A stretch of DNA of 64,000 nt from an uncultured bacterium. GTDB lineage: Bacteria; Krumholzibacteriota; Krumholzibacteriia; Krumholzibacteriales; Krumholzibacteriaceae. Location of the stretch: positions 36,966 through 100,965 of the forward strand of contig CBDUQN010000002.1 of NCBI GenBank assembly GCA_965369375.1, read 5' to 3'. The notes under the pieces were generated by a model. That model worked only from the letters and a program-made list of their open reading frames with translations. It was not told the origin of the DNA and ran no database searches. The number at the start of each line of letters is the position of its first letter. The stretch's first letter is position 1. This document shows, in pieces, positions 25,284 to 62,523 of this stretch. Both the position numbers and the translations under genes were made by a program.

Positions 25284-25901
25284 CTAGTTGTCGTCCGTGA
25301 TGAGCGGATCGGCAAAGTGAACGGTGATTCCCGATGTGAATGTGACTTTCCGCGATGTCTGCACCTCGTGCCCCTCGAAGGTGATCGTCGCATATGTCAT
25401 GATCTCTTCCGCCGTATAATGCATGTCGAAAAGCGGAGAGATGGTTTTAGCATAGAATGGGACGATCGGAACCGATATCTCAACCATGTTGTTCGCGGGA
25501 ACAAGCGAATTCAGCTTTCCAGAGAATGGCGCAACGGGTGCCGTCACGCCGGGAACCGTCGAAAACGTGACGGTATATTCGACATGGTAATCCGTTATGA
25601 GAAAGTCCCCGAGCGAGCCGGTACAGGGATTGATGATACTGTTGTACGGCCTGTTATGCACCAATACGAGAACATTATCCTCGCTGACGTAGTCGTCATT
25701 TCTGACGGGCGTCACACCGTCATTCTCGTAGATCGAATCACCCTGGTTGAGCACATCGCTGAAGTACGGATTGCCATCGTTTACGCTGGCCACTATGACG
25801 ACGGTTCTCTGATCGTAGTTCGAATCGTCACACCCGATTGCAATGAGGACTATACTGAGCACAACTATGAAGGTAAGGGGGATAAACTTCTTCGATAACA
25901 T
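25284..25901 (-). CDS. Hypothetical lipoprotein (no recognisable domain)
   Basis: Signal peptide plus lipobox MLSKKFIPLTFIVVLSIVLIAIGCDD. AGGAGG RBS 8 nt upstream of ATG 25901. GC visibly lower (about 50%) than the flanks. The tool ORF is extended to 26069. Confidence 0.5.
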   Translation of the reverse strand: MLSKKFIPLTFIVVLSIVLIAIGCDDSNYDQRTVVIVASVNDGNPYFSDVLNQGDSIYENDGVTPVRNDDYVSEDNVLVLVHNRPYNSIINPCTGSLGDFLITDYHVEYTVTFSTVPGVTAPVAPFSGKLNSLVPANNMVEISVPIVPFYAKTISPLFDMHYTAEEIMTYATITFEGHEVQTSRKVTFTSGITVHFADPLITDDN

Positions 25902-26136
25902 CGGGCAACCTCCTACTGCATGACTGGCTGTAAAGAGCTTCAACAACCCACGCTCGCAATGATTGTGCCAAGTATCACAGCGCCCAGAAGCGCATAATGT
26001 AATATTTAATAAGGAGATACGCCTGACTCCCGGGCTGCGGCAGAATTTTGTCTCTCCGTGATTGCACATTGCACTTCTTTATGTTGCGGTAATATCTGTC
26101 ATTACCTATGATGAATGTAAAACGGGGTGGTAATAA

Positions 26137-55621: not shown

Positions 55622-56689
55622 TTGAGAATTGCAGCTGTTCTTCCTCATATGCTCGTTTACGGCGGCGTGCGCCGCTACATCGAGCTCGGCAATGAATTTG
55701 TGTCGAGAGGGCACGAGTTCATAATCTATACGCCGGATGGAAAGCCGCCGGATTGGCTTGCCTTTTTCGGTTCCATGCGACGGCTCGATTCCATGCCGGA
55801 GCACGGGCATGATGTGATCCTCAACGGTTCACCTGAGTATGCATCATATGTCGACAGGGGAAAGGCCCGGCTGAAGATATTCTATATACAGGGTGAAAAC
55901 GTTCTCGATGAGAGGGAGATAATAACGTCGGGCCGGTACCGGATCATGGTCAATTCGTCGGGGCTTCGCAAAAAGGTTCGCAAGCGTTATTCGATCGATC
56001 CGATCGACGGCATAGGTGGGATAAATCAGAAGATTTTCAATCCGGGAGGTAACGGCGAGGCGGAAGTGTTCACCGGGGCGGCGGAAGTGTTCACCGGGGC
56101 GAAGGAATCGAATAATGGGCGTGCGGGCGCCTTCGATGGACGAACGGGATCGTTCAAGGTTCTCTGCTACGGCCGGCTGTCGAGACCGCACAAGGGAACG
56201 CGGTTCGTGATACAGGCGGTGCGATCGATGTTGCGTAAGGGATGCGACGTCGAGCTGCATCTCTTCGATTATCATACACAGGGCAATCCCGATCCCAGGA
56301 TAGGATTTCAACCGGGTGTTCCCTTCACGTTCTACATGGACCTTCCTCAATCAGCCATGGCGGCCATGTACCGGGCGGCTGATGTGTTTGTTTCCGCCGA
56401 ACATCGAACGGGTTGGTGCAACACGGGTGTGGAGGCGGTTGCGTGCGGCCTGCCGCTCGTATGCACGAGGAGCGGGACCGAGGATTTTGCGATTAATAAT
56501 GTCAGCGCCCTCGTCGTTCCGTACCGCACCTCATTCTTCGTCAAGCGCGCATTGACAAGGCTCTACCATGACCGGGAGCTGGGGGTGCGGCTCGGCGAGG
56601 AGGCACGCGGCAGAATCAGCGAGTTCACCTGGGGGAAGGTATGTGATAAGATGGAGCGATCATTCGTGGAGCTCACACGCTCCGATTGA
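55622..56689 (+). CDS. GT4-family glycosyltransferase (retaining GT-B)
   Basis: N-terminus MRIAAVLPHMLVYGGVRRYIELGNEFVSRGHEF and C-terminal E-x7-E region typical of GT4. TTG 55622 start proposed. Contains the 21-bp tandem duplication listed below. Confidence 0.65.
   Translation: MRIAAVLPHMLVYGGVRRYIELGNEFVSRGHEFIIYTPDGKPPDWLAFFGSMRRLDSMPEHGHDVILNGSPEYASYVDRGKARLKIFYIQGENVLDEREIITSGRYRIMVNSSGLRKKVRKRYSIDPIDGIGGINQKIFNPGGNGEAEVFTGAAEVFTGAKESNNGRAGAFDGRTGSFKVLCYGRLSRPHKGTRFVIQAVRSMLRKGCDVELHLFDYHTQGNPDPRIGFQPGVPFTFYMDLPQSAMAAMYRAADVFVSAEHRTGWCNTGVEAVACGLPLVCTRSGTEDFAINNVSALVVPYRTSFFVKRALTRLYHDRELGVRLGEEARGRISEFTWGKVCDKMERSFVELTRSD
56060..56101 (+). repeat. Perfect 21-bp tandem duplication (gcggaagtgttcaccggggcg x2) inside the GT4 gene, encoding AEVFTGA twice
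   Basis: Read directly; both copies identical and in frame. Confidence 0.9.
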
Positions 56690-56764: not shown

Positions 56765-57256
56765 ATGAATGAGAGAATTTTCAGGGATGCCGGGCTCCTG
56801 GCGAAACATTTGCAGAAGCTCCGCGTAGACCAGGGCCCGCTCGTCCTCGCGAACGGCTGCTTTGACATCCTTCATGTCGGACATGTCCGTTACCTCGTCG
56901 ATGCGGCAGCGCTCGGCGGTATACTCGTCGTTGCGCTCAATGACGACGCTTCGACGCTCAAACTCAAGGGTGCGGGCAGACCGGCGGTACCGGTCGATGA
57001 GCGGGCTGAGATTCTCATAGCCCTCGAGCCCGTCGATTACGTTCTGATCTTCGCGGACGAAACGGTCGATTCCATTATCGAAGTGCTGCGGCCCGACTCC
57101 CACGCGAAGGGGACGGATTATGCCGTAGAGACCGTTCCGGAAAGGGGCGCGGCGAAGGCGATCGGATGCAAGACAGTGATCGTAGGGGATCCGAAGAACC
57201 ATTCGAGCCGGGACATGATTGGGAGAATCAGGGGGGAGGGGAAGTGTGGATCTTGA
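56765..57256 (+). CDS. hldC: D-beta-D-heptose-1-phosphate adenylyltransferase (HldE domain II / HldC, cytidylyltransferase-like)
   Basis: VLANGCFDILHVGHVRYL nucleotidyltransferase HxGH motif. About 164 aa. GAAGGAAG RBS before ATG 56765. Confidence 0.8.
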   Translation: MNERIFRDAGLLAKHLQKLRVDQGPLVLANGCFDILHVGHVRYLVDAAALGGILVVALNDDASTLKLKGAGRPAVPVDERAEILIALEPVDYVLIFADETVDSIIEVLRPDSHAKGTDYAVETVPERGAAKAIGCKTVIVGDPKNHSSRDMIGRIRGEGKCGS

Positions 57257-58289
57257 GAAGGAAGCCCGGCTCAGGGGAAGGAAACTGCGGATTCTCGTTA
57301 CGAGGCTCCGGTATCTCGGAGACGTGATCATTACGACCCCCGTGCTCTCGGCTCTCAAGCGGCGATACCCAACTGCTGAGATTCATTACCTGACCGAGGC
57401 CCGGTATGCCCCCGTCCTCTATGAGAATCCGTTTATCGACCGGGTGATCGAGCTCAAAAGCGGCATCTTTTCCTCGCTATCGGTCATACATACAATGCGG
57501 CAAACAGGATTCGTCGCGGCCCTCGATCTCTTTTTTAATCCGAGAAGCGCGTTTCTTCTCTATCTTTCAGGCATTCCCATTCGGATCGGGGGAAGCAGGA
57601 AGTGGCGCAGGAGATTCTACACCGATATCTTTTCCGTGCCGCCGGCGGTGCGAAGCACCGTTGCGTATAGCCTTAATGCGCTCGATTGTTTCGATATCGA
57701 AGCGGAGGAGGAGCTTCCGCGCATTTATCTCACCGATGAGGAGCGTTCGGAAGGTGTCAATCTGCTCGAAGAAACAATCGCGCGGAGCCCCGGCGGCAGG
57801 CTAGTCGTTGCCGTTCATCCGGGCGGTACCTGGCAGTCGAAACGATGGAAACCGGAATCGTTCGCCACCCTCGCCGATAACCTCGTGAAACGCCACGATG
57901 CACGGGTGGTGATTATCACGGGACCGGGAGAGGAGGGGATTGCCGAAGCTGTCCGGAATGAATCGAACGGCCGTGCGTTCGTTCTGCCCCACTTGCCGCT
58001 GCGTTCCCTTGCAGCCGTTCTCAATTCCTGCGATGCCGTCATCGCCAATGATGGCGGCGTGCTTCACATGGCGGTGGCGCTCGGGCGTCCGACGGTCGGC
58101 ATATTCGGACCGACGGAGCCGGACATCTGGTTTCCATACGGGGGGAAAGGCCCCTTTGTCCTCGTGACGAGAAACGAAGATTGCGCTCCGTGCCACAAAC
58201 ATTACTGCGATGATCTGCGATGCCTCGATTCGATCAAACCGCAGGAGGTTCTCCGTACGGTGGAAGAAGTGATCGGCGGAGGAGCGTGA
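57246..58289 (+). CDS. GT9 heptosyltransferase
   Basis: N-terminus LRILVTRLRYLGDVIITTPVL (GT9 signature). GTG 57246 after GGAGGGG. Confidence 0.7.
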   Translation: MDLEKEARLRGRKLRILVTRLRYLGDVIITTPVLSALKRRYPTAEIHYLTEARYAPVLYENPFIDRVIELKSGIFSSLSVIHTMRQTGFVAALDLFFNPRSAFLLYLSGIPIRIGGSRKWRRRFYTDIFSVPPAVRSTVAYSLNALDCFDIEAEEELPRIYLTDEERSEGVNLLEETIARSPGGRLVVAVHPGGTWQSKRWKPESFATLADNLVKRHDARVVIITGPGEEGIAEAVRNESNGRAFVLPHLPLRSLAAVLNSCDAVIANDGGVLHMAVALGRPTVGIFGPTEPDIWFPYGGKGPFVLVTRNEDCAPCHKHYCDDLRCLDSIKPQEVLRTVEEVIGGGA

Positions 58290-58339
58290 TGGATGGTAAA
58301 GCAAAATGAATGGAATAGCTTAATAGGCGGAAAAACGTG

Positions 58340-59473
58340 ATGACCGATTCGATGCAGTACGATCTTTCGGAAAGGGACGGCATCGACTCCATCCTGATTG
58401 TCAGGTTGAAGGCCCTCGGCGATATCGTTCTTTCCCTGCCGATCATCGGCGCTTTGCGCGCGCGTTTCCCGAACGCCTGGATCGGTTATCTCTGTTGGGA
58501 ACAGTTTGCCGAGGCCCTCTCGGGAGAGACGGGACTCGATGAGATTCTCACGCTGCCGAAGCGATGGCTCGATCAGGCCGGGCTGCTGCTGCGGCTTCGC
58601 CGGAAGCGGGTAGACATCGTTCTCGATCTTCTGAGCTCACCGCGCAGCGCACTATTCACCTGGATGTCCGGCGGACGCATGCGGATCGGGATGGATGTCG
58701 GGAGACATCGGTGGTGTTATCATCTCGTGCTCCCTCGCGCCATTCTGCGGGACGGGCGCATCGTAAAGCGGTATACGATGGTATCCAACTGGGAGATCGT
58801 CAGGTTGCTCGGGCTCAAGGAGGAATATGCGGCCCTCGTGGGCGCCGCATGCGGATCGGCCGGTATGACGGCTCATGACGCCGACCGTATGGTTGCCGAC
58901 TCGAAGGCGCCGAAGACATTCGATTTTCGTATAGGCTTTCCGGCGGCGGAAAGCGAGCGCGCGTGGGCGAGGCACTATTTCGACGCGCTCGGCACTCTTC
59001 CAGAGAAGATCGTCGGCATCGTTCCAGGGGCGACCTATCGAGCCAAATCGTGGCCTGAAGAAAAATTCGCAGCCCTTTCGATGCTGCTTGTGAAGCGCCT
59101 CGGCCTGACGCCGCTCCTTATATGGGGACCGGGAGAGGAAGATCTCGCCCGCAGCATCCAGAGCGCGGCGCCGGGATCGATCCTCGCTCCTCAAACGGGC
59201 ATAGCCAGGCTCGGTGCTCTCATCGCGCATCTGTCCCTTCTCGTCACGCTCGATACGGGGCCGAAGCATATTGCAGTGCTCGAGGGGACGCGCACGGTAA
59301 CACTCTTCGGTCCGACGGATCCGGAATATTGGGATCCGTTGACTGATAGGCACGTTGCGGTACACAGGAAAATCGAATGTTTTCCCTGCCGGGAATTTGA
59401 TTGCAACCCGAACAGCTGCCTCACCGGCATCAGCCCCGAGGATGTCCTCGATGCGATCAAGGAAATACCGTGA
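58340..59473 (+). CDS. GT9 heptosyltransferase
   Basis: N-terminus ILIVRLKALGDIVLSLPII (GT9 signature). 378 aa. Confidence 0.7.
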   Translation: MTDSMQYDLSERDGIDSILIVRLKALGDIVLSLPIIGALRARFPNAWIGYLCWEQFAEALSGETGLDEILTLPKRWLDQAGLLLRLRRKRVDIVLDLLSSPRSALFTWMSGGRMRIGMDVGRHRWCYHLVLPRAILRDGRIVKRYTMVSNWEIVRLLGLKEEYAALVGAACGSAGMTAHDADRMVADSKAPKTFDFRIGFPAAESERAWARHYFDALGTLPEKIVGIVPGATYRAKSWPEEKFAALSMLLVKRLGLTPLLIWGPGEEDLARSIQSAAPGSILAPQTGIARLGALIAHLSLLVTLDTGPKHIAVLEGTRTVTLFGPTDPEYWDPLTDRHVAVHRKIECFPCREFDCNPNSCLTGISPEDVLDAIKEIP

Positions 59474-59487
59474 ATGGATACTTTTTA

Positions 59488-59516
59488 TTGAAAATTGCAC
59501 AACCCTTGCATATTGT
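59488..59516 (+). promoter_or_regulatory. Candidate promoter TTGAAA-N17-TATTGT upstream of the DUF3108-like gene
   Basis: Hexamers read directly in the 117-nt AT-rich gap. Confidence 0.3.
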
Positions 59517-59590
59517 TTATTCAGGTATGGCGTACCAGCTTCACGAAGTGGATGAAGTGTGCGACATAACAGATTGGAATAAAAATAATT

Positions 59591-60511
59591 ATGCCAAACA
59601 AGATATTGAAAGATAGAAAAAGATTGATTGGCTGGATCCTCGCCGCCATCGCTGTTTTCGTCCTCGTTTCCGGTCAGGTGTGGTCGCGGGAGGACAGGGA
59701 TTCCGCAGGCGCCGCTGCGACTGAAGAGGTCCGGGGGCGCGACGGCGCGGCTGTCGATCCGCAGCTGGAAGGTTTCGAGCTGGTGAATCTGCTGCCGGAA
59801 GTAGTGCCGTTCGGTGTGGGGGAAAAGCTGACATTCGCCATTCAGTACGGTTTGATCTATGCGGGCGATGCGACACTCGAGATCAGGAATATAGCGGTAC
59901 TCGATTCTGTGAAGACTTACCATGTGATCTCAACCGCCCGCACGAACAGGGCGTTTGATCTGGTATTCAAGGTCAGGGACCGCCACGAGTCGTTCATCGA
60001 TTACGATAATCTATTTTCACTGCGCTTCGAGAAACATCTGCGGGAGGGTAAATTCAAACGGGATGAAGAGGTCGATTTCGATCAGAAGAACCACCGGGCG
60101 ATCTATCCCGACAGGGATGTATCGATTGCTCCTAATACACAGGATATTCTATCGGCCCTCTATTATGCGCGCACGCTCCCCCTCGATGTCGGCCAGGCTA
60201 TCGCGATGGCGAACCATACGGGAGGCAAGAATTACCCGATCTACATAAAGATCCTCGGGCGCGAGAAGGTCAGTGTCCCCGCCGGGGAATTCGACTGCCT
60301 CGTGGTGGAACCGGTGCTGAAGACGAGCAGCCTCTTCGAGCAGAAGGGGAAGTTGACAATCTGGATAACCGATGATACGGTCAAGATGCCCGTTCTCATG
60401 CGCTCGAAGGTCGTCGTCGGCGCTTTCGAAGCGGTGCTCAAGGAGTATCGGTTGAGCGAGGAAAGCTTTCGCGTTTTCGAAAGAAAGGCTTATCCCGGAA
60501 ATGGCCAGTAA
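59591..60511 (+). CDS. Secreted DUF3108-like protein
   Basis: N-terminal signal/anchor LIGWILAAIAVFVLVSG, then a roughly 250 aa beta-rich domain. Family assignment from memory only. Confidence 0.35.
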   Translation: MPNKILKDRKRLIGWILAAIAVFVLVSGQVWSREDRDSAGAAATEEVRGRDGAAVDPQLEGFELVNLLPEVVPFGVGEKLTFAIQYGLIYAGDATLEIRNIAVLDSVKTYHVISTARTNRAFDLVFKVRDRHESFIDYDNLFSLRFEKHLREGKFKRDEEVDFDQKNHRAIYPDRDVSIAPNTQDILSALYYARTLPLDVGQAIAMANHTGGKNYPIYIKILGREKVSVPAGEFDCLVVEPVLKTSSLFEQKGKLTIWITDDTVKMPVLMRSKVVVGAFEAVLKEYRLSEESFRVFERKAYPGNGQ

Positions 60512-61448
60512 GTACGAATCTCTCGATCTTTCCCGGATAAAAACCATCCCGATTGCAGAGCGCGGGAGCAAGGTCCGCGTCACGGATTTCGGCGATCCGG
60601 TCAAGGGGGGAAAGGCCTTTGCGAAATGGCTTCACGCTCTGCCAGATGTCCTCGCGGTGCGGCGCGTGCGCGAGCTCAAGACCGCGATGAGAAGGGCGGT
60701 TTCGGGAAAGAACAAGGAGATCATCTGGATGATCGGCGCCCATGTAATCAAATGCGGCCTGTCGCGCTACCTCATCGAGCTCATGAAAAAGGGGTATATT
60801 ACATCGATCGCTATGAACGGGGCCGCATTGATCCACGATATGGAGATTGCCGTCTTCGGCGAGACGTCCGAGGATGTTTCGCGAAACCTCGAACGTGGCA
60901 TATTCGGTTTCTCGGCGGAAACGGCCTCGATATGTTTCGAAGCGGTGTCGAAGGGGAGCGAGGCTGAACGGGGGCTCGGCGAGGCGGCGGGAGCGTACCT
61001 GGTGAAGACCAAGGCGCCTCACCGCGAATACAGCCTGCTCGCAGAGTCGTATCGCCTCGATGTCCCCGCGACGGTGCATATTGCCCTCGGCACGGACATC
61101 GTTCACCAGCACCCCGGATTCGACGGAGCGGCGTGGGGGGAGCTCTCGATGAGGGATTTCCGCATCTTTGCAGCCCGTATCGAGAATCTTGGAATCTCCG
61201 GCGGCGTCGCGCTCAACGTCGGATCGGCGGTGATCCTGCCGGAGGTCTTTCTCAAGGCATTGAGCGTCGCCCGTAATCTCGGCGCCGGATTCGATTCAAT
61301 TACCGTCTGCAACATGGATATGATCCACCATTACCGTCCCACCGAAAATGTGCTCGTGCGGCCCGCAGCCTTTGGAGGCACGGCCATCCAGCTCACGGGG
61401 CGTCACGAGATCATGCTCCCGCTCCTCTATTCGGCGCTGCTCTCCTGA
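60501..61448 (+). CDS. Deoxyhypusine-synthase-like (DHS family) protein, function unknown
   Basis: Segment CGLSRYLIELMKKGYITSIAMNGAALIHD parallels the DHS motif [29 protein letters not shown]. C-terminal Gly-rich region (LGTDIVHQHPGFDG, GISGGVALNVGSA). Assignment by eye. Confidence 0.35.
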   Translation: MASKYESLDLSRIKTIPIAERGSKVRVTDFGDPVKGGKAFAKWLHALPDVLAVRRVRELKTAMRRAVSGKNKEIIWMIGAHVIKCGLSRYLIELMKKGYITSIAMNGAALIHDMEIAVFGETSEDVSRNLERGIFGFSAETASICFEAVSKGSEAERGLGEAAGAYLVKTKAPHREYSLLAESYRLDVPATVHIALGTDIVHQHPGFDGAAWGELSMRDFRIFAARIENLGISGGVALNVGSAVILPEVFLKALSVARNLGAGFDSITVCNMDMIHHYRPTENVLVRPAAFGGTAIQLTGRHEIMLPLLYSALLS

Positions 61449-61491
61449 GCTTTCCGGCCGGCGGACAGCGGGAATGCCATCAATGCTAGAA

Positions 61492-61530
61492 ACCTATTAA
61501 AGGGAACCTATTAACGAGAACCATTATTAA
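61492..61530 (+). repeat. Three tandem direct repeats (AACCTATTAA, AACCTATTAA, AACCATTATTAA) separated by 3-4 nt spacers, abutting the -35 of the downstream promoter
   Basis: Read directly: gaaACCTATTAAagggAACCTATTAAcgagAACCATTATTAAtgtgTTGACA. Confidence 0.8.
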
Positions 61531-61534
61531 TGTG

Positions 61535-61564
61535 TTGACAAAACGGGTTTTTTCATGTTACAAT
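61535..61564 (+). promoter_or_regulatory. Strong sigma70 promoter with extended -10: TTGACA-N18-TGtTACAAT
   Basis: -35 TTGACA at 61535-61540, TG at 61556-61557, -10 TACAAT at 61559-61564. Drives the sugar-transferase / wza / wzc locus. Confidence 0.55.
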
Positions 61565-61656
61565 AGTGTTCGACATCAGGAGGTAACAGTTCGCGACGTT
61601 TGCTAAAGGTCTTTGCTTCGGAATCTAGCATGTGATCTGGGATTTGAAGTAGGCCT

Positions 61657-62412
61657 GTGGCAAGCGTTTTTATTATGCCCGGGCGGATCAGCATGCTCGG
61701 GCTTTTTGTTTCGGAGGATACAGTGTCAGGGTATCCAGAGTTGCGCGATGTTGCTTTAGAGCGGGAATCAGCCATCAATTTGGTCGATACTTCGGAGATC
61801 AAAGAAAGCCCATCATACATCTTCGTGAAACGTTTCATCGATATCGTTGCGGCTCTCCTGCTTATTATTCTATTCCTTCCGATCATTCCCGTTGTCGGCA
61901 TTCTGATAAAGCTGGATTCTCAGGGACCTGTTCTTTTCAAGCAGAAGAGAATCGGCAAGAACGGAAAAGAGTTCGACTTCTACAAATTTCGCTCCATGAT
62001 CGACGATGCGGAGGCGGTCATCAGGACACTCCGTCCCCTGAGCAAGGATAACGGTCCCATTTTCAAGCTCAAGGACGATCCGAGGGTCACTCCTGTTGGA
62101 CGGTTTCTCCGCCGTTCGAGCCTTGATGAACTGCCTCAATTGCTTAACGTCCTGAAGGGCGATATGAGCATTGTAGGACCCCGTCCGAACTTGCCTTCCG
62201 AGGTTTCACATTACCTGTCCTGGCAGAAGAGACGACTGGACGTAACTCCCGGTATAACATGCTTCTGGCAAATTGCCGGAAGAAGTCATATCGGGTTCCA
62301 GGAGTGGATGCGGCTGGATCTCGAGTATATCCGCAAAAGGAGCATGCTCACGGATCTCAAGATAATGATCAAGACGATCCCGGCCGTTATAGCCAGGAAG
62401 GGGGCCTATTAG
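61657..62412 (+). CDS. Undecaprenyl-phosphate sugar phosphotransferase (bacterial sugar transferase family, WbaP/WcaJ C-terminal-type)
   Basis: TM FIDIVAALLLIILFLPIIPVVGILIKL, then LFKQKRIGKNGKEFDFYKFRSM and SIVGPRP motifs. Start uncertain (GTG 61657, ATG 61693, or GTG 61723 behind GGAGG). Confidence 0.8.
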   Translation: MASVFIMPGRISMLGLFVSEDTVSGYPELRDVALERESAINLVDTSEIKESPSYIFVKRFIDIVAALLLIILFLPIIPVVGILIKLDSQGPVLFKQKRIGKNGKEFDFYKFRSMIDDAEAVIRTLRPLSKDNGPIFKLKDDPRVTPVGRFLRRSSLDELPQLLNVLKGDMSIVGPRPNLPSEVSHYLSWQKRRLDVTPGITCFWQIAGRSHIGFQEWMRLDLEYIRKRSMLTDLKIMIKTIPAVIARKGAY

Positions 62413-62523
62413 CTTACGTGGCACGTATCTTGCCGCAAAATTCATTGACATAGTATATCCAAATTCTTAGATTCTTCTTTAAGTTGCGTGGATAAAGGAA
62501 GTTTCTGAATAGGTTGCAGGGTG

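Follow-up and report, generated by a model that had tools for sequence, protein, structure and literature searches.

A lineage-specific promoter repeat and a candidate leader RNA at an exopolysaccharide locus of uncultured Krumholzibacteriota

What decides when an uncultured bacterium of the Krumholzibacteriota makes exopolysaccharide (EPS)? The locus described here raises this question through a short sequence that stands three times in tandem directly upstream of the promoter heading the EPS genes. A preliminary description had read these repeats as the binding array of a response regulator or activator, and the whole as a plausible switch of EPS synthesis. The window, which is the whole 64-kb stretch of DNA that was analyzed, was searched for further copies of the motif, and the intergenic region was compared with orthologous loci from the same phylum. 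The features are collected in Table 1.

Table 1. Features between the upstream repeats and the export genes, in window positions
Feature	Position	Strand	Basis and remarks
Dispersed direct repeat, upstream copy, AGCGGGAATGCCATCAAT	61467..61484	+	repeat-family search of the window
Repeat 1, AACCTATTAA	61491..61500	+	sequence reading, TRF; center at about -75.5 from the inferred transcription start
Repeat 2, AACCTATTAA	61505..61514	+	sequence reading, TRF; center at about -61.5 from the inferred transcription start
Repeat 3, AACCATTATTAA (AACC-AT-TATTAA)	61519..61530	+	2-nt insertion relative to the perfect AACCTATTAA of L164
A/T block TATTA, UP-element-like, proximal-subsite position	61525..61529	+	10 to 6 nt 5' of the -35; about -46 to -42
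Sigma-70-type promoter, TTGACA-N18-TGtTACAAT	61535..61564	+	promoter scan, 11/12 plus TG
Orphan Shine-Dalgarno-like GGAGG near the transcript 5' end	61579..61583	+	no start codon after it
P1, long imperfect RNA hairpin	61594..61669	+	26 modelled pairs; lower two-thirds conserved, tip variable
P2, putative intrinsic terminator, GCCCGGGCGG-ATCAGCAT-GCTCGGGC, then TTTTTGTTTC	61677..61712	+	terminator scan; cross-locus pairing
RBS GGAGGA (61713-61718) and start codon GTG (61723) of the sugar transferase	61713..61725	+	orthologue alignment
Priming polyprenyl glycosylphosphotransferase (Bac_transf, EPS_sugtrans)	61723..62412	+	domain matches
Dispersed direct repeat, partner copy, AGCGGGAATCAGCCATCAAT	61760-61779		inside the sugar transferase coding sequence
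Sigma-54-type -24/-12 element, TGGCAC-gtatc-TTGC	62419..62433	+	starts 7 nt after the sugar transferase stop
Second sigma-70-like promoter, TTGACA-N17-TAGATT	62445..62473	+	just 3' of the sigma-54 element, before the Wza-like gene

The promoter and the repeats in its flank

A strong extended -10 promoter of the sigma-70 type had been placed at the head of the EPS locus, and this was borne out by both the promoter scan and the relatives. The -35 TTGACA (61535-61540) is followed by an 18-bp spacer, the TG (61556-61557) and the -10 TACAAT (61559-61564). The architecture is invariant in all 19 orthologous Krumholzibacteriota loci, each of which has TTGACA without mismatch, a spacer of exactly 18 bp, TGn and TAnnAT. 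From this promoter, transcription is predicted to start at about 61571.

When the 19 loci are anchored on the -35, an A/T block is the only conserved position upstream. The A/T fraction is 0.8-1.0 at -10 to -6 before the -35; the other positions of the 60 nt upstream have 0.2-0.7. The consensus of the block is C-A-W-T-T-T, so it is T-rich, and a k-mer search 5' of the -35 in 17 non-redundant loci returned a single shared k-mer, ATTTTG (6/17). Across the 19 loci this is a conserved A/T-rich block between -38 and -59, as in UP elements. It resembles that of Escherichia coli rrnB P1 in standing directly 5' of the -35, at the position of the proximal subsite (PMC4390567, also for the extended -10). 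The E. coli proximal-subsite consensus is the A-rich AAAAAARNR, whereas CAWTTT shares only its A/T content and does not match that consensus. In the window, repeat 3 covers the block, and its TATTA fills those positions.

The triple repeat upstream of TTGACA is present as had been described, except that it starts at 61491, one base off the 61492 given earlier. Its spacers read, in order, aggg, cgag and tgtg, and repeat 3 is centered at about -46.5 from the inferred transcription start. The array is called by TRF at 61491-61526 with a period of 14, 2.6 copies and a score of 51, the second-strongest in the window. On its own, this score is only moderately beyond chance; 23% of 60 block-wise dinucleotide shuffles of the window held some array scoring at least 51 with a period of at least 7. 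The array is taken as a real feature despite this rate because the closest relative, L164, retains it in a cleaner form. L164 has a 96% identical sugar transferase, and its array consists of three in-phase copies with a 14-bp period, a TRF score of 65 and 95% matches. Repeat 1 of L164 reads ACCCTATTAA and repeat 2 is identical to that of the window. In the window, repeats 1 and 2 have the same 10-nt core, and their 4-nt spacers differ at two of four positions. The chance of two random substitutions in 14 nt both landing in the spacer is about 0.07 by our arithmetic. This gives a weak hint that the core may be constrained, though core 1 is substituted in L164.

Comparative alignment of the intergenic region, the check suggested with the earlier reading, went against it: among 18 related loci, the array is not conserved beyond L164. 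It is missing in L165, where the sugar transferase is 88% identical and only ...GGAAAGCATTAATGTA stands ahead of TTGACA. It is also missing in 16 further, more distant orthologous loci, so that the motif is absent from 17 of the 18 related promoters. In one of these loci (L143), the stop codon of the upstream gene ends 10 nt before the -35, so that an array would not fit between gene and promoter. The array is 90.9% identical between the window and L164 and is the least conserved non-coding segment, as against 100% for the core promoter; with these two genomes as the only carriers, selection on the array is hardly measurable. The two also differ by a 2-bp indel that moves repeats 1 and 2 to another phase against the -35. 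The dispersed direct repeat has both of its copies in L164 and neither in L165. Its lineage restriction matches that of the tandem array, which suggests that this intergenic stretch may have been remodelled by local duplications.

The repeats could be the binding sites of a lineage-specific transcription factor, either a response regulator or another activator or repressor, that switches the promoter. Three in-phase copies adjoin the -35, the array is kept in both genomes of the lineage, and the cores within the window are better conserved than the spacers. Class I activators act in the region of -46.5, -61.5 and -75.5, and the repeats are centered in this territory. This reading is nevertheless improbable. 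Besides being missing at 88% identity and in every other relative compared, the motif has no copies above chance in the 64-kb window (18 matches at up to two mismatches, 21.3 expected). The window holds no regulator gene, and none was found in four relatives within up to 10 kb on either side of the locus. The indel shifts repeats 1 and 2 against the -35, and with a promoter so near to consensus an activator should be unneeded. Classic arrays of the OmpR/PhoB type are also short direct repeats next to a -35. They are spaced by one helical turn (10-11 bp), with the protomers on one face of the helix, whereas the period in the window and in L164 is 14 bp, which is not helical and sets successive sites about 120 degrees apart. 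Those arrays further differ from the one in the window in that the latter is not conserved in orthologous promoters, gives no regulon signal within 64 kb and has no cognate regulator that could be detected. By eye, no ECF-type (GGAAC-N16-17-CGTC), sigma-54 or IHF pattern was seen within the repeats. A contingency (phase-variable) repeat, in which slippage changes the copy number and tunes promoter strength, would likewise be a tandem array adjoining a promoter. It is extremely unlikely here, as there are merely 2.6 imperfect copies of the 14-bp unit and the copy number is equal in the window and L164.

The array is probably a young, lineage-specific triplication of a 14-bp unit in the promoter flank, with control of EPS synthesis more likely to be found in the leader RNA and a sigma-54 promoter. 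It is read as the triplication of an UP-like block because the only upstream feature common to all loci is the A/T block under repeat 3. The promoter-proximal unit overlaps this block, which lies where a proximal subsite would contact the alpha-CTD of RNA polymerase. A triplicated block and flank with a 14-bp period would set the window lineage apart from known UP elements. The two distal units would be extra copies of the block, placed where the relatives show unconserved sequence of ordinary composition. Their effect would most likely be nil, or a modest UP-like boost to a promoter that is already near consensus.

A conserved RNA structure ahead of the first gene

A leader of 90-150 nt had been expected before the EPS genes. 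From the inferred start (about 61571) to the GTG at 61723 there are about 152 nt, in close agreement. The orphan GGAGG lies 10-15 nt past the -10 in all 19 loci, which places it in roughly the first 10 nt of the predicted RNA. In none of the 19 is there an ATG, GTG or TTG 3-13 nt downstream of it. For this reason a leader peptide behind the GGAGG was rejected; the window does have a short TTG open reading frame, but it is not conserved. A 5' hairpin that would present the GGAGG was also set aside; it is stable in L005, L006, L084 and L086 only (about -4 kcal/mol) and weak or absent in the remaining loci.

Folding gives the same architecture, P1 followed by P2, in all 19 loci. P2 has a 9-bp stem with 7 GC pairs that is followed by TTTTTGTTT, as in an intrinsic terminator. 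The stem is 99-100% paired across the loci, with 4 compensatory pairs. At least 5 T are found in the 8 nt after the stem in 16 of the 19 loci, and the U-tract is weak in the other three. In every locus some 10-30 nt separate the end of the structure from the start codon, and in the window P2 lies 10 nt before the RBS.

Over the leader as a whole, 91% of cells are paired (39-52% in slid controls), 13 pairs are compensatory, and both P1 and P2 show covariation. A covariation score of 0.335 was obtained, compared with about 0.1 in slid and 0.242 in shuffled controls, and none of 500 shuffles reached it. The sense strand is the more stable one in 19 of 19 loci, and G-U makes up 23% of the pairs. 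The leader has what characterizes structured cis-regulatory leader RNAs in general, a covarying structure on the sense strand that keeps its place before a gene. The primary sequence of P1 is conserved well past what pairing needs, which suggests that it may be recognized in a sequence-specific manner.

A covariance model of the leader was built from 14 loci. It recovers five independent new loci at 60-87 bits. No match was found among about 150 loci of other phyla, and there is no second copy in the window. A search of the leader, the whole window and seven related loci against Rfam 15 gave nothing at the gathering thresholds, and the best sub-threshold match reached 19.9 bits against a threshold of 70 bits.

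The sugar transferase gene and the putative promoters behind it

The genes downstream are those of an EPS export locus, as had been described. They encode a Bac_transf glycosylphosphotransferase, a Wza-like Poly_export/SLBB protein, a chain-length determinant, a PEP-CTERM-type ATPase and a tyrosine autokinase. The gene caller placed the start of the sugar transferase at an ATG (61693). This was rejected in favor of the GTG at 61723, because the orthologous proteins line up with the GTG-started protein from its first residue onward; the ATG sits inside the terminator.

A putative sigma-54 promoter follows the sugar transferase gene. The pattern search gave two matches in the window, with 0.12 expected, and the one at 62419-62433 is exact. 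Every orthologous locus that extends over the site has GGCAY-N5-TTGC 7-13 nt past the stop codon. The element has the GG and GC doublets in TGGCAC-N5-TTGCW, and its position is conserved. The TTGAC of the second sigma-70-like promoter is nearly invariant in 13 aligned loci. If sigma-54 is used here, the export genes would depend on an enhancer-binding activator.

XrtA/PEP-CTERM EPS loci, as described in TIGRFAMs, have sigma-54 promoters with enhancer-binding regulators of the PrsR type. The present locus is similar in its conserved GGCAY-N5-TTGC ahead of the export genes, and its proteins match the PEP-CTERM-type export, ATPase and tyrosine kinase models, mostly below the cut-offs. It differs in that no PrsR/PrsK, exosortase or RpoN gene was found in the sequence examined here. 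Also, one gene separates the sigma-54 element from the repeat array upstream.

How exopolysaccharide synthesis may be controlled

An RNA made from the conserved promoter would carry the orphan GGAGG first, then P1, and then the GC-rich P2 terminator with its U-tract. By default, transcription should stop ahead of the priming glycosyltransferase gene, and read-through of P2 would require some factor or condition. We tentatively propose that the GGAGG, P1 and the terminator may well form a cis-regulatory RNA that is specific to the phylum and new to description. Its role would be to gate the priming glycosyltransferase in Krumholzibacteriota; it would be read by a protein or ligand and act jointly with the tandem sigma-54 and sigma-70 promoters for the export genes.

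Several ways can be considered in which such a leader might act. A dedicated antitermination factor could bind P1 or the 5' region and let the polymerase pass P2. This layout would be like that of the LoaP-dependent dfn and mln leaders of Bacillus velezensis, in which a leader hairpin and an intrinsic terminator precede a long biosynthetic operon (PMC12691694). The same order of conserved 5' hairpin, intrinsic terminator and operon is found in all 19 loci, and the extra conservation of P1 would fit a bound factor. Even so, a mechanism of this kind is somewhat unlikely. A NusG-like gene was not found within 10 kb in five loci, nor a NusG-domain gene in the annotated flanks. The LoaP leaders have a small hairpin with a UNCG tetraloop and serve polyketide synthesis, whereas P1 is a hairpin of about 30 bp whose tip varies (in the window it is not UNCG), ahead of polysaccharide genes in another phylum. 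Processivity is also not obviously needed. An internal terminator of the operon in L001 (15920-15945) was considered as evidence for processive antitermination and rejected; the counterpart genes of L167 and L169 directly adjoin or overlap each other, which leaves no room for it, and it is not conserved.

The leader might instead govern the fate of the mRNA. The GGAGG could be a STAB-SD-like stabilizer that binds a 30S subunit and so blocks decay in the 5'-to-3' direction, and P1 an RNase III-type processing site, or the terminated RNA of about 135 nt could itself be an sRNA. In the cry3A mRNA of B. thuringiensis, an SD-like sequence in the 5' UTR does not start translation (PMC4113751), and a start-less GGAGG within about the first 10 nt in 19 of 19 loci is comparable. 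It differs in standing at the very 5' end of the primary transcript, in an uncultured phylum, and its binding of 30S would be putative, as would an RNase J in this phylum. P1 is a long, near-perfect duplex, and the promoter and terminator enclose a discrete unit of about 135 nt. We consider this account unlikely. The terminator lies 10 nt from the RBS with no promoter between them, so expression would come from read-through, and attenuation fits at least equally well.

A riboswitch that senses a metabolite or second messenger, with the P2 terminator as its expression platform, is quite improbable, although a conserved, structured 5' leader with a terminator directly before the RBS is of the right form. 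The tip of P1 is partly complementary to the 5' half or the loop of the terminator, with a shuffle p of at most 0.05 in 7 of 14 loci. A compensatory difference between tip and terminator is seen between L002 (GCCUGCCCG/CGGGCAGGC) and L082 (ACCUGCCCG/CGGGCAGGU). However, the other 7 of the 14 have no such complementarity or none of significance, there is no Rfam family match, and the leader is one long helix and has no multi-helix junction. With 7 of the 14 loci lacking significance, the P1 tip and the terminator were rejected as the arms of a universal antiterminator, and their pairing is kept as a hint only; among the 14 loci, no antitermination or sensing element was found that all members share. 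Non-coding elements that affect termination are known from other polysaccharide operon leaders, such as the EAR (epsC) RNA and JUMPstart/ops. The leader described here has no Rfam match to these even at E<=10, and it does not contain the ops sequence.

For the question of what switches EPS synthesis, the repeats that were proposed for this role are restricted to one lineage, and the conserved leader RNA and sigma-54 element are likelier controls. From the sequence comparisons, it is likely that these two, rather than the repeats, are the switches. The repeat array would then be of little importance, a recent local duplication beside a strong promoter. What the comparison does show is how the main EPS locus of the Krumholzibacteriota, an uncultured candidate phylum, is likely to be controlled. 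The elements of this control would be an invariant near-consensus promoter, a leader RNA unmatched in Rfam with its terminator, and a conserved sigma-54 promoter. The leader is an added candidate in the catalogue of structured bacterial leader RNAs. The priming glycosyltransferase carries out the committed step of EPS assembly, and it is this step that the leader, if the proposal is true, would gate. The covariance model and the exact coordinates are testable handles on how these bacteria decide on exopolysaccharide.

Promoter and gene neighborhood

The exopolysaccharide (EPS) locus begins with the gene for a priming glycosylphosphotransferase, the sugar transferase, followed by a gene for a Poly_export/SLBB Wza-like protein. 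Metagenome contig L001, which is identical to the window and runs past its end, continues with genes for a chain-length determinant, a PEP-CTERM-type ATPase, a tyrosine autokinase, a phosphodiesterase-family protein, and a flippase. The best protein matches were to Candidatus Krumholzibacteriota MAGs. From its GTG start, the sugar transferase has 229 aa and its own GGAGGA. An automatic call on L001 starts at ATG 61693 (239 aa); this codon lies inside the terminator hairpin, and the orthologue alignment favors GTG 61723. A strong intrinsic terminator is present at L001 15920-15945 (about 66420-66445, past the window end), in the gap that separates the tyrosine-kinase-like gene from its downstream neighbor. 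The loop and upper stem, GCGGTAGCG, have nine bases in common with the RfaH ops element. This terminator lacks conservation: in L167 and L169 the equivalent genes adjoin or overlap each other.

Elsewhere, the window holds housekeeping and envelope genes (PolA, ClpC, BamA, LpxD/C/A, bacillithiol synthesis, Lon), as well as LPS-core heptosyltransferases with MsbA. A phylum-wide gene order was observed (window 57219-61448; L164-L172): LPS-core glycosyltransferases, DUF3108, a GSU2086-family protein, an optional methyltransferase or PMT_2 gene, and then promoter, leader, and EPS locus.

Orthologous loci came from collections of genomes and metagenomes and from look-ups of exact protein sequences. 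With the window, L002-L006, L082-L087, L132, L143, L164-L167, and L169 gave 19 distinct promoters for comparison. The promoter scored 11/12 with TG in the promoter scan, and the exact TTGACA, exact 18-bp spacer, TGn, and TAnnAT are found in 19/19 loci. The gene 5' of it is a GSU2086-family member in the window, L164, and L165 and, judged by C-terminal coding-sequence match, in L003, L005, L006, L086, L087, L132, and L143. It is a methyltransferase in L166 and a PMT_2 gene in L167; L002, L004, and L082-L085 have different coding sequence at this place. Because the upstream gene varies while the promoter is invariant, the promoter travels with the sugar-transferase gene. The strong extended -10 promoter proposed at the head of the locus is thus well supported by its elements and spacing, with an inferred start.

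Features of the EPS locus and its upstream region
Feature	Sequence	Coordinates	Strand	Basis or remark
Upstream gene, GSU2086 family		60501-61448		5' of the promoter
Dispersed direct repeat, 18/20 nt	AGCGGGAAT(-/CA)GCCATCAAT	61467-61484 and 61760-61779	+	window and L164, not L165
Repeat 1	AACCTATTAA	61491-61500	+	sequence reading of 60800-62200
Repeat 2	AACCTATTAA	61505-61514	+	sequence reading of 60800-62200
Repeat 3	AACCATTATTAA	61519-61530	+	sequence reading of 60800-62200
A/T block, within repeat 3	TATTA	61525-61529	+	-35-anchored alignment of 19 promoters
Promoter	TTGACA-N18-TG...TACAAT	-35 61535-61540; TG 61556-61557; -10 61559-61564	+	sequence reading, promoter scan
P1, long imperfect hairpin		61594-61669	+	lower two-thirds sequence-conserved, both strands
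P2, GC-rich terminator hairpin	followed by TTTTTGTTT	61677-61702	+	ends 10 nt before RBS
Sugar-transferase RBS	GGAGGA	61713-61718	+	5' of GTG 61723
Sugar transferase, Bac_transf/EPS_sugtrans		start GTG 61723	+	orthologues align from residue 1
Consensus sigma-54 -24/-12 element	TGGCAC-gtatc-TTGC	62419-62433	+	seven nt past sugar-transferase stop codon
Sigma-70-like promoter	TTGACA-N17-TAGATT	62445-62473	+	about 11 nt 3' of sigma-54 element

Direct repeats upstream of the promoter

Three repeats are indeed present directly 5' of the promoter, with the spacers aggg, cgag, and tgtg in order. TRF reports the array at 61491-61526 (period 14, 2.6 copies, score 51) as the second strongest in the window. 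An array of this score (period of at least 7) occurred somewhere in 64 kb in 23% of 60 block-wise dinucleotide shuffles, and on its own statistics the array is only moderately unusual. The strongest tandem repeat of the window (TRF 86) is a perfect 21-bp, in-frame duplication of 7 codons in a Glycos_transf_1 gene at 56059-56107 (+). The array is nonetheless taken as real, since L164, the closest relative (sugar transferase 96% identical), retains a cleaner version, ACCCTATTAA-aggg-AACCTATTAA-cggg-AACCTATTAA-tgtg-TTGACA (TRF score 65, 95% matches).

The preliminary description took the repeats for a response-regulator or activator binding array. Only two genomes, those of the window and of L164, carry them. 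The array is absent from L165 (88% identical, same gene order), in which merely ...GGAAAGCATTAATGTA precedes TTGACA, and AACCTATTAA, or any 6-mer of it except TATTAA, is absent from the remaining 16 loci; in L143 the stop codon of the upstream gene ends 10 nt 5' of the -35. When the window is compared with L164, no other non-coding segment is as poorly conserved as the array (90.9% identical, versus 100% for the core promoter). It differs by two substitutions and by a 2-bp indel, which displaces repeats 1 and 2 with respect to the -35. The motif is not enriched in the 64-kb window, with 3 matches at up to one mismatch (1.0 expected) and 18 at up to two (21.3 expected). One single-mismatch copy, AACCTATTCA at 62506-62515 (-), lies just 5' of the Wza-like start codon; L164 differs at this position and the copy is probably due to chance. 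Sites in OmpR/PhoB-type arrays are spaced one helical turn, whereas the 14-bp period here turns each site by about 120 degrees around the helix from the one before. Low conservation, no motif enrichment, and a non-helical period thus argue, as far as these sequences allow a test, against an activator array, a reading that is not supported and probably wrong.

Once the 19 promoters are aligned at the -35, upstream conservation is confined to an A/T block of 5 nt, 10 to 6 nt 5' of TTGACA (consensus C-A-W-T-T-T), with an A/T fraction of 0.8-1.0 versus 0.2-0.7 at other upstream positions. ATTTTG is the only upstream k-mer common to the loci above shuffled expectation. Relative to the inferred transcription start, the block falls at about -46 to -42, the position occupied by the proximal subsite of an UP element (PMC4390567). 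Repeats 1 and 2 occupy a stretch that is unconserved and of ordinary composition in relatives. The dispersed repeat has one copy 5' of the array and the other, 293 bp away, inside the sugar-transferase coding sequence; they enclose the promoter, the leader, and the initial 37 nt of the gene. This duplication has the same lineage restriction as the array. Because only the A/T block is conserved, repeats 1 and 2 have no conserved counterpart, and the second duplication is lineage-matched, the array is read as a recent, lineage-specific tandem triplication of a 14-bp unit containing the UP-like block, in an intergenic stretch apparently remodeled by local duplications. Functionally, the array is probably neutral or gives a modest UP-like boost. 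One weak hint runs against this reading: the two perfect cores are identical and only their spacers differ (probability about 0.07 for two randomly placed substitutions), but core 1 of the L164 array does carry a substitution.

Structured leader RNA

The leader proposed ahead of the EPS genes was found to be conserved and structured in 19/19 loci, with 154-164 nt from the -10 to the start codon. All have a GGAGG 10-15 nt past the -10, which puts it within roughly ten nucleotides of the RNA 5' end, and none of the 19 has an ATG, GTG, or TTG 3-13 nt 3' of it. This orphan GGAGG resembles a STAB-SD stabilizer (PMC4113751). P1 is stabler on the sense strand in 19/19 loci (mean -32.8 versus -19.4 kcal/mol), and G-U makes up 23% of its pairs, so P1 is an RNA-level feature. 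In 16/19 loci, five or more of the 8 nt downstream of P2 are T.

A covariance model built on 14 loci retrieved five independent loci (60-87 bits), whose leaders each end just 5' of the RBS, 10-30 nt ahead of the start codon. It had no match among about 150 sugar-transferase loci of other phyla and, even with filters off, no second copy in the window. When 19 related sequences were fitted to the model, paired cells amounted to 91%, versus 39-52% with slid partners, and thirteen pairs had compensatory changes. The covariation score was 0.335, versus about 0.1 slid and 0.242 shuffled (reached in 0/500 shuffles). Since model fitting shapes that alignment, a plain MAFFT/RNAalifold run is given as well; it showed compensatory changes in 9/22 pairs. 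The leader had no Rfam match. It appears to be a noteworthy phylum-specific structured RNA with a terminator, outside the Rfam families.

This layout predicts that transcription would terminate by default before the priming glycosyltransferase gene and that read-through of P2 would be conditional. The nearest working parallel is with the LoaP-dependent dfn leader, a leader hairpin followed by a NusA-dependent intrinsic terminator (PMC12691694). P1, however, does not have the form of a small UNCG hairpin, and no NusG paralogue was found within 10 kb. The P1 tip is complementary to the terminator 5' half or loop in 7/14 loci (shuffle p<=0.05), and L002 and L082 differ there in a compensatory way. 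Because this complementarity is absent in the L005/L006/L084/L086 group and L143, a shared antiterminator is only a hint. Other possible readings of the leader are a riboswitch, a site for RNase III, and a stand-alone sRNA of about 135 nt.

Sigma-54 element and proposed control of export genes

The exact sigma-54 pattern has 2 matches in the window versus 0.12 expected, and GGCAY-N5-TTGC is found at the same place in every orthologous Krumholzibacteriota locus covering the site. The second exact TGGCAY-N5-TTGC match, TGGCACAATCATTGC at 25956-25970 (-), lies about 55 nt 5' of a 205-aa gene without a Pfam match (25284-25901, -) and may be another sigma-54 promoter. The TTGAC of the sigma-70-like promoter is nearly invariant in 13 aligned loci. 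Since these promoters are tandem or overlapping, two holoenzymes may compete there. No transcription-regulator gene was found in the 64-kb window.

The noteworthy result adjoins the array: a structured leader and a tandem sigma-54/sigma-70 promoter pair. The conserved sigma-54 element implies that an enhancer-binding activator would serve the Wza-like gene and the export genes downstream of it. Because sigma-54 promoters need such an activator, a response-regulator-type switch of the export genes, if any, would most plausibly act at this element and not at the repeats.
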